DNA of 44,417 nucleotides, from the IMG/VR virus record IMGVR_UViG_2606217118_000001; one strand, written 5' to 3'. The translations under genes and the position numbers were made by a program. This DNA comes from a virus. Taxonomy: Duplodnaviria; Heunggongvirae; Uroviricota; Caudoviricetes. The notes beneath the pieces were generated by a model. It made no database searches, had not been told where the DNA came from, and saw nothing but the letters and a program-made list of their open reading frames with translations. Below are positions 1,081-44,417 of the stretch, in pieces (the first letter of the stretch is position 1; every line of letters begins with the position of its first letter).

Positions 1081-1662
1081 TTACCCTATAGGTGCTACTG
1101 GCCATTCAATATCCGGTGCAGTTGTTGTATTAACACGGTTCAGCAACACCCGATACTTCTTCCAGGCTTCCAGCAACGAGATTTCTTCCTCCGTTGCGAT
1201 TTCCAGATCTACAGCATCCTGAAGTGGCGCAATATGCTCACTGGCTACCTGCATCAGGCTGTTTTTTGTTTCTTCTGCCTCCCGGATCCGGAACAGTTTT
1301 TCTGCTTCCGTATCCTTCACCCAGGCTGTGCCGTTCCACTTCTGAAACTCCCCTTCCGGCGATAACCAGGTAACATTTTCCGCTAACGGACCGAGTTCAG
1401 AAATAAATAACGCGTCGCCGGAAGCCACGTCATAGACCGTTTTACCCCGATGGTCTTCAACGAGATGCCACGATGCCTCATCACTGTTGAAAACAGCCAC
1501 AAAGCCAGCCGGAATATCTGGCGGTGCAATATCGGTACTGTTTGCTGGCAGACCTGTATGAGGCGGAATATATGCGTCACCTTCACCAATAAATTCATTA
1601 GTTCCGGCCAGCAGATTATAAATTGTTATGGTCCGTGGTTGTTCACTCATTCTGAATGCCAT
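1081..1662 (-). CDS. tfa: Tail fiber assembly protein (lambda Tfa-like)
   Basis: 193 aa, [24 protein letters not shown]...; start overlaps stf stop. Confidence 0.9.
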
Positions 1663-26855: not shown

Positions 26856-27323
26856 TCATCGAAGGCATTGCGTCCTAATGTATTCCTGAAGCGTTCTCAG
26901 TGCTGTTTGGTCGCGGATAATTCCGTCCCGGATATCGAGAACGTTTCGTCCAGCAACTGGAGAGAGTTCGACGGTGGCATCATTGCCCATGCCGGAGGCG
27001 CTGGAGGTTTCGGCTGAGGATGGCACAGGGCATTTTCCTTTGACGAGCACCCTGCCACCATTATCAAGCTTCCGCAGAAGAGCATCATTTTCAGCTTTCG
27101 CATCAGCTAACTCCTTCGTGTATTTTGCATCGAGCGCAGCAACATCACGCTGACGCATCTGCATGTCAGTAATTGCCGCGTTCGCCAGCTTCAGTTCTCT
27201 GACATTTTTGTCGCGCTGGGCTTTGTAGGTAATGGCGTTATCACGGTAATGATTAACAGCCCATGACAGGCAGACGATGATGCAGATAACCAGAGCGGAG
27301 ATAATCGCGGTTACTCTGCTCAT
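26856..27323 (-). CDS. Rz: Inner-membrane spanin Rz (i-spanin)
   Basis: Start [38 protein letters not shown] with GGGGGA SD; ATGA overlap with R stop; C-terminal half diverges from lambda Rz. Confidence 0.9.
26897..27103 (-). CDS. Rz1: Outer-membrane lipoprotein spanin Rz1 (o-spanin), embedded in Rz in +1 frame
   Basis: 68 aa with lipobox LIMVAGCSS and Pro-rich [16 protein letters not shown]. Confidence 0.8.
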
Positions 27324-27817
27324 TGTTTCCCCCACAAACAGACTTCACGCTCAATCTCACGGCGAGTCATCAGTCCTTTCCATTGATTACCGCCAGCGTA
27401 TGTCCAGCGCCGTAGCTGATCACATGCGCCTTTGATATCACCCTGGTTTATTTTGCGAAGAAGCGTCGATGTTCTGAAATTGCCAGCACCCACGTTGTAG
27501 ACGAACGAGTAAAGAGCGCCGCGCGTTGTTTCCGGTATATCGACTTTGATGTACGGGTTAATTTGTCTGGCGACAGTGGCAAGGTCTTTATTCAGGAGGG
27601 CTTTGCACTCTGCTTCGGTATACGTTTTACCGGGAATGATGTCTTTTCCTGTATGCCCGTAACATACAGTCCATACACCAACTATGTCTTTGTAAGGATT
27701 ATGTCTCACACCTTCCAGACCATCGTTACCACTTGGGCCAGTGATTAACACAGATGCTATAGCAATAGCCCCGCCACCAATAGCAGCAGCAACAGCTTTT
27801 CGTAATGATGGAGGCAT
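27320..27817 (-). CDS. R: SAR endolysin (T4-lysozyme-like, phage 21 R / DLP12 RrrD-like)
   Basis: 165 aa; N-terminal Gly/Ala-rich SAR segment [20 protein letters not shown]; E...D...T catalytic spacing; ATGA overlap with S stop. Confidence 0.9.
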
Positions 27818-28032
27818 TATCCACCTCTCGCAGCCTTGCGCTTATCTTCTTTAATCTTGAAATAAAGGTTTGTCAGGTACGTCAGCAGGCCAAATACCAG
27901 GCTACCCAGCACTCCAATTGCCGCCCACTGTGAGGGCGTGACTTTATCGAGCAGCTGTAAAAACCAGTACCCGGCACTACCTGCTGAGGTGCCATAGGCG
28001 ACACCCGTTGTTAACTTATCCATGGATTTCAT
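27817..28032 (-). CDS. S: Class II holin (pinholin, S21/EssD-like) with dual-start motif
   Basis: 71 aa [71 protein letters not shown]; two TMDs; Met1 and Met4. Confidence 0.9.
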
Positions 28033-28155
28033 AACCCCACCTCGCAGACAAAGCGGGTGTAAATTGAGGGAATACTACGAAACGTAACAGACTCGGAGTC
28101 AGTGAATAACTCAGGTATTGGGTTATCAGCTAATATCGAGACTCAAAAAATGGAA

Positions 28156-28190
28156 AAACCCGCTCGACGGCGGGTTTAAGCTGTGTGACG
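28156..28190 (-). terminator. Rho-independent terminator upstream of S (candidate tR' of short late leader transcript)
   Basis: Minus strand aaacccgc-cgtcga-gcgggttt perfect 8-bp stem followed by ttccatttttt. Confidence 0.6.
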
Positions 28191-28603
28191 AAGTAACCAC
28201 TCTTAACAGCATAACCAATTTTTTACGTACGTAAACCACTAAATGATATTTGCGAGAATGCTACCGAGTATTGAAAACACCACTACAAATACATAAGCAA
28301 ATCTCAACAAATAACCAACAAATAATTTCCAGCGTTATTTTTAGCTGGTTTAAATTGAATCTTCAAATTATAGAGCACTTATAAATAACAGCCATTAATA
28401 TAAATTGGCTAATAGATTTATTTTTATTCAGCCAAGAGCCATGAATAGGATTCGATAGAAAAAGTTCAGATAAAAATAGAGATCTACTTCACAAATCAAA
28501 TGAGAAACCAAAACTTACATCTTGAAATAATCACATTGATTAGATGAATATTTATCGCGCAGTGACATCATTTTTTAATAATAGTTCAAAAAAAGGGCTC
28601 ACG

Positions 28604-29686
28604 ATGAAAAAATTAACAGTGGCAATTTCTGCTGTAGCTGCATCAGTACTGATGGCGATGTCTGCTCAGGCAGCTGAAATTTATAATAAAGACAGTAACA
28701 AGCTGGATCTGTACGGGAAAGTTAATGCTAAGCACTACTTCTCCTCTAATGATGCAGATGATGGTGATACTACTTATGCCCGTCTTGGCTTCAAAGGTGA
28801 AACCCAAATCAACGATCAACTGACTGGTTTCGGTCAGTGGGAATATGAATTCAAAGGCAACCGCGCTGAATCTCAAGGTTCCTCCAAAGATAAAACCCGT
28901 CTTGCCTTCGCTGGCCTGAAATTCGGTGACTACGGCTCCATCGATTATGGCCGTAACTACGGTGTAGCATACGATATTGGTGCATGGACCGACGTTCTGC
29001 CAGAATTCGGTGGCGATACCTGGACCCAAACAGATGTATTCATGACTGGTCGCACCACAGGTGTTGCAACTTATCGTAACAATGACTTCTTTGGTCTGGT
29101 TGATGGTCTGAACTTTGCTGCTCAGTATCAGGGTAAAAATGACCGCACTGACGTAACTGAAGCTAATGGTGATGGTTTCGGTTTCTCCACTACTTATGAG
29201 TATGAAGGATTCGGTGTAGGTGCAACCTATGCTAAATCTGACCGCACTAATAATCAGGTTATCTACGGTAACAACAGCCTGAATGCATCTGGTCAAAATG
29301 CTGAAGTATGGGCAGCTGGTCTGAAATATGATGCGAACAACATCTATCTGGCTACCACCTATTCTGAAACCCAGAACATGACTGTTTTTGGTAATAACCA
29401 TATTGCCAACAAAGCACAAAACTTCGAAGTAGTTGCACAATATCAGTTCGACTTCGGTCTGCGTCCGTCCGTTGCTTACCTGCAATCTAAAGGAAAAGAC
29501 TTGGGTGCGTGGGGTGATCAGGACCTGGTTGAATATATTGATGTAGGTGCAACCTATTACTTCAACAAAAATATGTCCACTTTTGTTGATTACAAAATCA
29601 ACCTGATTGATAAGAGCGATTTCACGAAAGCATCTGGCGTTGCTACCGATGATATCGTTGCTGTAGGTATGGTTTACCAGTTCTAA
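28604..29686 (+). CDS. Outer membrane porin, OmpC/OmpF/PhoE family (phage-borne Lc/NmpC-like)
   Basis: Signal peptide [39 protein letters not shown]..., C-terminal ...VGMVYQF; AAGGG SD; longer upstream ORF extension rejected. Confidence 0.9.
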
Positions 29687-29711
29687 TTTGATTACTAAAA
29701 GATATGTTGCG

Positions 29712-29730
29712 GGAGGCTTTGCCTCCCCAA
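29712..29730 (+). other. Stem-loop (gggaggc-ttt-gcctccc) in porin 3' region
   Basis: Perfect 7-bp inverted repeat 26 nt after porin stop. Confidence 0.5.
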
Positions 29731-29821
29731 CATATAAGTGGCTCCCTCAAGCCACTTCCTTTAGGAGCACAACCTTGCTTCTAACTATATAAACCTTCTG
29801 TTATATATTACCCTTTATTTT

Positions 29822-29860
29822 TGGGGGCGTCTCAACGCCCCATTTTTAATAATTTTTAGT
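29822..29860 (+). terminator. Rho-independent terminator-like hairpin downstream of porin gene
   Basis: ggggcgtctcaacgcccc stem-loop followed by atttttaataattttt. Confidence 0.55.
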
Positions 29861-29874
29861 AAACAATTGGCATA

Positions 29875-30258
29875 TTAATTAGAGTTATTAACAACGATAT
29901 CCATCTCTAACCGGATATCTAATGCCATTAACATCCCTTCAATTATACCCTCAGCCTTCTGTAACCTTTTCCCGATATAACCATCAGAGCAGCAATGCTT
30001 ACCTGCCAGTGACATGAATGTCATACCGACTACATAATAATCTACTAATAAATCGTGCAAATCGCTGTTGTTCTTTTTCAGACGGGCCATGCACCCGCAA
30101 ATGATCATCGCGTCATCGTCACAACATTGCGGGCGAGATTTTACTTTTGAAGGAATTAATCCCTTAAAACCGGCGGCAATGGACGACCAGGTCACATCTT
30201 CATGATTATTAGCCGCCCACGCTCCCCAACGCTCAAGAACCATCTGAATATCACGCAT
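29875..30258 (-). CDS. Q: Late-gene antiterminator Q (DLP12 QuuD-like)
   Basis: Start at ATG giving [24 protein letters not shown]... (127 aa); track ORF begins at an upstream TTG. Confidence 0.85.
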
Positions 30259-30343
30259 CAACTTACTCCACAAAAATCAGACCAGAACGCTAATTACAAG
30301 CAAAAATCAACAAAACAGTATTAGTTGATTGTTATCTCTGACT

Positions 30344-38843: not shown

Positions 38844-38916
38844 GCGCGGCGTTACCGCATACCAATAACGCTTCACTCGAGGCGTTTTTCGTTATGTATA
38901 AATAAGGAGCACACCA

Positions 38917-39054
38917 TGCAATATGCCATTGCAGGGTGGCCTGTTGCTGGCTGCCCTTCCGAATCTTTACTTGAACGAATCACCCGTAAATTACGTGACG
39001 GATGGAAACGCCTTATCGACATACTTAATCAGCCAGGAGTACCCAAAAATGGAT
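38917..39054 (+). CDS. cIII: CIII (FtsH/HflB inhibitor), 45 aa, C-terminally shorter than lambda CIII
   Basis: [46 protein letters not shown]; stop TAA overlaps kil start. Confidence 0.8.
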
Positions 39055-43779: not shown

Positions 43780-44417
43780 CACAGAAAACCCCCAGCTAGG
43801 CTGGGGGTTCCGGAAAGCTTTCAGCTTTGAGCCAGTTATTAAAACCCCTTTTGATTTGTTAAAACACCTTGCGGTCTGGCAACTGCAAGTGTCAAACAAG
43901 AAATCAAAAGGGGGTCCCAATGGGGAACGAAAAGAGCTTAGCGCACACCCGATGGAACTGTAAATATCACATAGTTTTTGCGCCAAAATACCGAAGACAA
44001 GTGTTCTACAGAGAGAAGCGTAGAGCAATAGGCAGTATTTTGAGAAAGCTGTGTGAGTGGAAAAGCGTACGGATTCTTGAAGCTGAATGCTGTGCAGATC
44101 ATATCCATATGCTTGTGGAGATCCCGCCCAAAATGAGTGTATCCGGCTTTATGGGATATCTGAAAGGGAAAAGCAGTCTGATGCTTTACGAGCAGTTTGG
44201 TGATTTGAAATTCAAATACAGGAACAGAGAGTTCTGGTGCAGAGGGTACTACGTCGATACGGTGGGTAAGAACACGGCGAAGATACAGGATTACATAAAG
44301 CACCAGCTTGAAGAGGATAAAATGGGAGAGCAGTTATCGATTCCCTATCCGGGCAGCCCGTTTACGGGCCGTAAGTAACGAAGTTGGATGCAAATGTCAG
44401 ATCGTGTGCGCCTGTTA
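43780..44417 (+). mobile_element. IS200-family insertion sequence, partial (left-end hairpins plus tnpA; right end beyond window)
   Basis: Left-end palindromes cccccagc-tag-gctggggg and gaaagctttc followed by an IS200-type TnpA ORF. Confidence 0.8.
43920..44378 (+). CDS. tnpA: IS200/IS605-family Y1 (HUH) transposase TnpA
   Basis: Start MGNEKSLAHTRWNCKYHIVFAPKYRRQVFYREKRRAIGSILRKLCEWKSVRILEAECCADHIHMLVEIPPK (152 aa). Confidence 0.9.
   Translation: MGNEKSLAHTRWNCKYHIVFAPKYRRQVFYREKRRAIGSILRKLCEWKSVRILEAECCADHIHMLVEIPPKMSVSGFMGYLKGKSSLMLYEQFGDLKFKYRNREFWCRGYYVDTVGKNTAKIQDYIKHQLEEDKMGEQLSIPYPGSPFTGRK

Follow-up and report, generated by a model that had tools for sequence, protein, structure and literature searches.

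The ipeX locus behind the porin gene of a lambdoid phage: conserved hairpins, neighbouring genes and a candidate seed for ompC and ompF

In the window, i.e. the whole 44,417-nt stretch of DNA analysed here, a gap of 188 nt (29687-29874) lies between the stop codon of a phage porin gene (29686) and that of the Q antiterminator gene (29875). Judged by its sequence, this interval is the ipeX locus itself, already known and not a new element, because only 4 substitutions and 1 indel set it apart from the DLP12 spacer that defines ipeX. With a probability of about 0.85, we read the interval as ipeX and as the 3′ untranslated region (UTR) of the porin mRNA, the RNA processed from it lowering OmpC and OmpF by a proposed antisense pairing. 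The present basis for this reading is the identity with ipeX, the hairpins and their covariation, the linkage to the porin gene, the terminator, and the complementarity with its statistics; the origin of the IpeX RNA in the porin transcript, and the repression of OmpC and OmpF, are taken from the literature. IpeX is a textbook case of a prophage RNA that rewires host outer-membrane permeability and the display of phage receptors, and what is added here to the known locus is a covariation-supported structure of five hairpins, the recognition of the element in P1-like phages, the position of the true late control region and a specific, testable seed hypothesis.

Identity, distribution and neighbours of the locus

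The window represents a lambdoid phage which, over the region examined, shares 99.8-100 % identity with Escherichia phage ev099, and the features that frame the interval are as follows.

26856-28032, minus strand: Rz, R and S lysis genes
28146-28236, minus strand: late control region (pR′/qut/tR′), from alignment A7 to the annotated phage 933W module and, for the terminator, from the scan
28604-29686, plus strand: phage porin gene of the lc/nmpC type, 360 aa (open reading frame; Pfam Porin_1, 3e-153; NCBIfam OmpC subfamily)
29687-29857, plus strand: IpeX element, i.e. the porin 3′ UTR, beginning with the first base past the stop codon and ending with the terminator U-tract
29875-30273, minus strand: Q antiterminator gene of the QuuD type (open reading frame; Pfam Phage_antitermQ, 8.5e-54), convergent with the porin gene and given as context, being outside the element itself

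The sequence-only reading had described a structured non-coding gap of 190 nt and had proposed it as a counterpart of the DLP12 IpeX. The gap is real, with a length of 188 nt, and the proposal is borne out more strongly than it was put, the locus being the same one: in an alignment with the nmpC-quuD spacer of E. coli K-12 DLP12 4 substitutions and 1 indel are counted over the 188 nt, and megablast of 29648-29900 against K-12-derived genomes gives 97.2 %. The flanks likewise match DLP12, with an nmpC/lc-type porin gene on one side and a QuuD-type Q on the other, and the element occupies the place of ipeX, i.e. directly 3′ of the porin gene, on the same strand and ahead of a Rho-independent terminator. 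Castillo-Keller, Vuong and Misra (2006; J Bacteriol 188:576) reportedly mapped ipeX between the nmpC stop codon and its Rho-independent terminator, and phage PA-2 is said to carry the identical sequence behind its porin gene lc. Locus, neighbours (the porin gene upstream on the same strand, a quuD-type Q convergent) and terminator are common to the window, DLP12 and PA-2 lc; in K-12 DLP12, however, an IS5 copy interrupts the porin gene 58 nt ahead of its stop codon, whereas the window, with its porin gene intact, shows the PA-2-type arrangement. One of the substitutions relative to DLP12, the G at 29765, makes an A-U pair of hairpin H3 into a G-U pair. As described in the literature, IpeX is a 167-nt DLP12 RNA that is made from the phage porin promoter within the porin transcript, is then processed, and controls OmpC (PMC12197685), repression having been described for both ompC and ompF (PMC5069750; PMC7177473).

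The sequence is present in 2503 of 5426 complete E. coli genomes, i.e. in about half of them, and in 41 phage records, most of the listed entries placing it between a porin gene and quuD; the element lies just downstream of Q in 80/80 fetched viral contigs that encode this Q. Yet it goes unannotated. No Rfam family matches the interval at gathering thresholds, Rfam 15 having no IpeX family, and NC_000913.3 (locus L001, 574340-574528) bears no ipeX feature between nmpC and quuD, although micF is annotated there as an ncRNA. Among the matches listed, an ipeX annotation is likewise absent from the RefSeq and phage records, in which the product of the porin gene is labelled as porin OmpC/OmpD. Because ipeX is unannotated, genome scans keep 'rediscovering' it, and the covariation-backed structure and candidate seed described below could found an RNA family. 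The E. coli ipeX region also turns up, with 95 % identity, in a 442-nt contig filed under Streptomyces alkaliterrae (locus L159, NZ_VJYK02000722.1), where it most likely represents contamination of that assembly.

In E. coli JB2 (L003, 1224-2549) the porin gene and most of ipeX have given way to ISKpn26, an element of the IS5 family, and only 29811-29900 is left. A reading of JB2 as the boundary of a Q-only module at 29811 was rejected, the IS5-family insertion having removed the porin gene; with JB2 and the IS5 copy of K-12, the cassette of porin gene and ipeX is a repeated target of IS5-type insertion.

The sequence-only reading had also allowed that the hairpins might belong to a Q-dependent late control region on the minus strand, i.e. 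pR′, a Q-utilisation site and tR′, and we regard this as extremely improbable. The interval does lie directly downstream of Q on the minus strand, which is the position of pR′ in lambda and 933W; that strand also folds well (z = -7.3), and hairpin H1, if read on it, is trailed by CUUUUAG. However, the scan found neither a sigma-70-like promoter nor a terminator-like site on the minus strand of 29687-29874, and a clear homologue of the annotated 933W module lies outside the interval: 28236-28146 (minus strand) aligns base for base with the pR′, qut and terminator of 933W, the Q protein of which is related. This true module consists of a late promoter, GTTTAC-17 nt-TATGCT (28236-28208, minus strand), a qut-like AAGAGTGGTTAC that follows it, and tR′, i.e. 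AAACCCGCCGTCGAGCGGGTTT with a T run (terminator 28177-28156); it is placed between the porin gene and the holin gene, just upstream of the latter, and K-12 has the aligned stretch in identical form upstream of essD. Further arguments against a late control role are that the element follows the porin gene, and is kept with compensatory changes, in P7-type phages that have no adjacent Q gene, and that its G-U variants fit the plus strand. Two candidates for pR′ on the minus strand of the interval were dropped given the 933W-type module, namely TTGAGA (in the terminator loop) with TAATAT at a 19-nt spacer, and GTTTAC followed after 17 nt by GGGGCG.

Because the late control module sits at 28236-28146, porin gene and ipeX are a cassette set, in opposite orientation, between Q and the promoter of Q. 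This 1.6-kb porin-ipeX cassette separates the Q gene from its target promoter. Similarity to the 88 % identical Q gene of phage Lambda_2E9 ends at 29899, some 8 codons before the Q stop codon, and in Lambda_2E9 (locus L461, 1882-2581) the same slot after Q is occupied by an opposite-strand gene for the lipocalin Blc; at loci L403 and L429 the match to Q is limited to the last 30 residues. Since a boundary of the cassette appears to fall inside the 3′ end of Q, this seems to be a recurrent insertion slot for accessory genes.

Structure, covariation and strand of the element

Folding of the plus strand gives a minimum free energy (MFE) of -63.2 kcal/mol, compared with -31.1 +/- 3.5 kcal/mol for 200 dinucleotide shuffles (z = -9.1, reached by 0/200), and the MFE structure predicts five hairpins in the gap, listed here together with the block considered below as a seed.

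29702-29735, plus strand: hairpin H1, 15 bp, with a bulged C at 29710 (MFE; 7 of 15 pairs compensatory, 96.7 % of cells paired)
29736-29757, plus strand: hairpin H2, 8 bp (MFE; 3 of 8 pairs compensatory)
29761-29784, plus strand: hairpin H3, 9 bp (MFE; 3 of 9 pairs compensatory)
29786-29807, plus strand: weak hairpin H4, 7 A-U pairs (MFE; weak covariation support)
29792-29815, plus strand: candidate seed block, the longest conserved block common to the lambdoid and P7 classes, of low opening energy
29824-29857, plus strand: intrinsic terminator of the porin/IpeX transcript (terminator scan; 3 of 7 pairs compensatory; G-U variants fit the plus strand)

The perfect 7-bp stem-loop that had been placed at 29712-29730 exists, GGGAGGC-TTT-GCCTCCC, and lies 1-3 nt away from those positions, at 29711-29727, where it forms the inner core of the 15-bp H1; the bulged C of H1 is T, or is deleted, in variants. 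A second hairpin followed by a T-rich run had been noted as well and was found as the terminator, with a stem GGGGCGT-CTCA-ACGCCCC at 29824-29841 and then ATTTTTAATAATTTTT up to 29857, whilst the hairpins at 29736-29757 and 29761-29784 and the weak one at 29786-29807 had been missed. The H2 loop, CCCUCA (29744-29749), is anti-Shine-Dalgarno-like and is unchanged in 15/15 sequences of alignment A3. H3 has in this window the G-U pair 29765/29780, and its G-U variants fit the plus strand only. The loop and 3′ arm of H4 are part of the candidate seed block; the 3′ arm is invariant, and the common variant TATACAA disrupts one pair via the 5′ arm.

An absence of coding potential had rightly been asserted, the only open reading frames to overlap the interval being trivial ones of 34-35 codons. 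The terminator is the sole terminator-like site that the scan returned in the interval, and it is preceded by an A/U-rich linker, UUUAUUUUU (29814-29822), which is a candidate Hfq site. From the porin stop codon to the U-tract there are 167-171 nt. The same scan gave no promoter-like site on the plus strand inside or just before the interval, which fits co-transcription with the porin gene, and the porin gene would supply the parent transcript of the IpeX element. When the Rfam search was relaxed to E <= 10 the matches within the interval were traJ_5 and sau-19, both at chance level.

Pattern and protein searches gathered 48 distinct variant sequences. A genome scan with the H2 motif returned mostly chance matches in GC-rich genomes, a metagenome scan with the AT-rich seed motif gave mostly chance matches too, and the two yielded few new variants. 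The lineages comprise the DLP12/ev099 class, an 87 % class, a 77 % class (L234) and a class of ~71 %, the last found in P7, a P1-like phage, and in relatives of P7, where it follows nmpC. In a plain MAFFT alignment of the lambdoid classes (A4) pairing across the five hairpins stands at 97 %, and 5 pairs are compensatory. When RNAalifold was given the MAFFT alignment that covers every class (A3), in which the P7 class is misaligned, it returned a meaningless long-range structure, and a model-guided alignment was used instead: a covariance model built from the lambdoid alignment served to align 20 distinct variants including the P7 class (A6). This model (R1) matches 29687-29857 of the window with 214 bits. 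In A6, which is fitted to the model structure so that its pair counts are inflated towards that structure, 96.4 % of cells form standard pairs, as against 38-50 % with the partners slid by 1-3 columns; 19 of 46 pairs are changed on both sides, as against 1-6; and the covariation score is 0.235, as against ~0.045, with 0/500 shuffles reaching 0.235. Even in the raw sequences, compensatory change is plainly visible for H1, H2, H3 and the terminator, H4 being poorly supported.

G-U appears in 14 cells (8 pairs), whereas A-C, the wobble expected on the other strand, appears in 4 cells (3 pairs), all of them in H4 or closing a loop. Because G-U outnumbers A-C and the terminator is on the plus strand only, the element is best read as a plus-strand RNA. 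A porin gene, 81-99 % identical, is directly upstream at 12/12 representative loci; at four P7-class loci the element is directly 3′ of nmpC and there is no Q gene, and two other loci match the last 30 residues of Q only. The element is linked to the porin gene and not to Q.

Such hairpins might in principle serve the porin mRNA alone, i.e. as a stabilising 3′ end and terminator array which insulates it from the convergent Q transcript and has no role in trans. Stable hairpin arrays at mRNA 3′ ends commonly guard against 3′ exonucleases, and here the genes are convergent, with just 17 nt from the end of the U-tract to the Q stop codon. Nevertheless, a sequence differing at five positions is trans-active in K-12 and PA-2 according to the literature (PMC12197685, PMC5069750), and a purely structural role leaves the invariant unpaired blocks, i.e. 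the seed and the H2 loop, unexplained; we consider an exclusively local function distinctly improbable.

Complementarity to host porin mRNAs and a possible mechanism

Two unpaired blocks are almost invariant across the lambdoid and P7 classes, namely the CCCUCA loop of H2 and AAC.U..UGUUAU.UAUUACC.UUU, which takes in the loop and 3′ arm of H4 and the linker that precedes the terminator. The whole 171-nt element, with no region preselected, was scanned for the best ungapped nearest-neighbour helix, with shuffles, against the -60..+30 regions of K-12 ompC, ompF and ompA and of the phage's own porin gene. This search replaced unrestricted RNAduplex, which gave unrealistic duplexes of 80-130 nt with huge loops.

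The sequence-only reading had named ompC and ompF for target prediction, and helices were found with both. In ompC, 29792-29806 (AACCUUCUGUUAUAU) is complementary to -21..-7 (AUAUAACAGAGGGUU), the Shine-Dalgarno sequence included, over 15 bp (14 Watson-Crick and 1 G-U; -23.1 kcal/mol). The score of this helix was matched by 10/3000 shuffles of the sRNA, 11/3000 shuffles of the target and 3/973 natural 90-nt windows of this phage, i.e. p ~0.003 by three kinds of control, a value that covers one helix type where three to four targets were tried. In ompF, 29800-29815 (GUUAUAUAUUACCCUU) is complementary to -14..+2 over 10 bp, or 16 bp with one mismatch. The -60..+30 start regions of ompA and of the phage's own porin gene gave nothing above background in the ungapped helix search, and IpeX is reported to leave OmpA unaffected. 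Identity of the ompC target stretch is 99 % or higher in 5330/5371 E. coli genomes, and the match to the ompC ribosome-binding site within ipeX has apparently gone unreported so far.

Accessibility and variation can be set beside these helices. Opening of the seed block is calculated to cost ~3.3 kcal/mol, as against 11-24 kcal/mol for H1-H3, the 3′ half of the ompC-complementary block being inside the weak hairpin H4. Within the lambdoid class a single substitution was seen in the seed, from C to U in L234, and it preserves pairing as G-U. In the P7 class the pairing is different and stronger: the complementarity to ompF is a perfect 16 bp (matched by 1/400 shuffles), or 22 bp with one bulge (-26.1 kcal/mol), and that to ompC is 17 bp with one bulge, across the AUG; this class pairs weakly with the start region of its own nmpC.

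From these features we infer 29792-29815 as the seed and pairing as the mechanism. The porin promoter would drive co-transcription of the element with the porin gene, the transcript would end at the intrinsic terminator (29824-29857), and an RNA of ~170 nt would be released, which would lower synthesis of host OmpC and OmpF. Block 29792-29815 would form 15 bp with the Shine-Dalgarno region of ompC and would also pair with ompF, from the Shine-Dalgarno sequence to the AUG, and this pairing would block ribosome binding in the manner of MicC and MicF, with H1-H3 acting mainly to stabilise the RNA. The phage porin would still be made, the start region for its own translation not being complementary, and a lysogen might in this way exchange its surface porins. 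Occlusion of the ribosome-binding site, MicC/MicF-like and sparing the phage porin, is the most likely means by which IpeX would repress the host porins.

IpeX might instead act without antisense pairing, e.g. if its several anti-Shine-Dalgarno-like motifs, such as the CCCUCA loop or CCUCCCC in H1, titrated a protein or ribosomes, the complementarity to ompC and ompF then being incidental or a relic of a porin leader. A non-pairing action was reportedly suggested by the original authors (Castillo-Keller et al. 2006), who are said to have found no complementarity between ipeX and the required ompC leader, and to have found Hfq needed for the effect on ompF and the effect on ompC Hfq-independent. 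The invariance of the H2 loop in all variants of A3 would agree with such an action, as would the minus strand of the seed block, which reads like tandem porin starts and is possibly an inverted copy of a porin leader. A review, moreover, states that regulation by IpeX is not reliant only on complementarity (PMC12197685), and IpeX has been described as Hfq-independent (PMC8313858); the pairing model conflicts with, or refines, both the statement of that review and the 2006 result given above. Nonetheless, no part of the RNA is better conserved or more accessible than the complementary block, both phage classes retain strong pairing with the ompC and ompF starts through different base pairs, pairing of this kind is missing from ompA and the phage's own porin, which are non-targets, and the controls for the ompC helix also argue against coincidence. 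We therefore consider action without pairing rather unlikely.

A fuller form of the pairing model, to which we would give about even odds, is that IpeX is a true antisense RNA the complementarity of which was missed originally; that it carries two overlapping seeds, one for ompC and one for ompF; that it spread with phage porin genes to P1-like plasmid prophages, where the seeds were retuned (22 bp with ompF, 17 bp at the ompC AUG); and that the block is possibly an inverted porin leader. The candidate seed makes the long-unclear mechanism of IpeX simply testable. If pairing proves true, carriage of the prophage predicts lower OmpC and OmpF, which would bear on antibiotic uptake and on susceptibility to phages, and, if the antisense reading holds, phage porin cassettes would be self-contained modules that 'replace the host porin'.

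Relation to other small RNAs, and further observations

MicF (acting on ompF) and MicC (on ompC) are trans-acting RNAs that bind the Shine-Dalgarno/start region of host porin mRNAs, as is proposed likewise, from complementarity, for IpeX. The IpeX motif UUAU(A/U)UAUUACC nearly matches the MicF seed UUAUUUAUUACC, and both cover -11..+1 of ompF, the likeness being limited to this 12-nt seed: the MicF and MicC models of Rfam gave no match in the interval even at E <= 10, and there is no overall homology of sequence or structure. MicF and MicC are, moreover, free-standing core-genome genes with promoters of their own, whereas IpeX is the 3′ UTR of a phage porin mRNA. It shares the terminator of its parent mRNA, as do the 3′UTR-derived sRNAs of the CpxQ, DapZ, SroC and MicL type, and like them is reported to be processed from a longer transcript, that of the porin gene (PMC12197685). 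The layout is also that of such sRNAs, with a conserved block of low opening energy (29792-29815), then UUUAUUUUU and then the shared terminator. Unlike CpxQ, DapZ, SroC and MicL, IpeX is ~170 nt long, has three extra stable hairpins 5′ of the seed and is phage-borne. StxS and the 6S-type leader RNAs of lambdoid phages, which run from pR′ to tR′, are also short structured RNA regions near Q, but they come from the late promoter on the Q strand, and that module is here at 28236-28146, outside the interval.

The reverse complement of the seed block resembles two overlapping porin translation starts, with AAGGGTAATATATAAC to be compared with GAGGGTAATAAATAAT of ompF and ATATAACAGAAGGTT with ATATAACAGAGGGTT of ompC, and on this resemblance a porin leader, copied in inverted orientation, may be the origin of the seed. 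Elsewhere in the window, matches above the Rfam gathering score are IS009 (1121-1319, minus strand, 229 bits), the Hfq-binding RNA STnc490 (43787-43910, plus strand, 146 bits) and the lambda cIII thermoregulator (38903-38961, plus strand, 88 bits). In the P7 class (L004, 2588-2777 and 1402-1472) the inner part of H1, GGGAAGGGAGUGAUGUCACUGCC, has a complementary stretch at -48..-30 in the 5′ UTR of its own nmpC (-23.6 kcal/mol), and a further 18-bp match joins it to -45..-28 in the 5′ UTR of the porin gene of this window (z ~ -7), the window's own H1 being without this complementarity; the match in the P7 class may represent an interaction between 5′ and 3′ UTR, or autoregulation.
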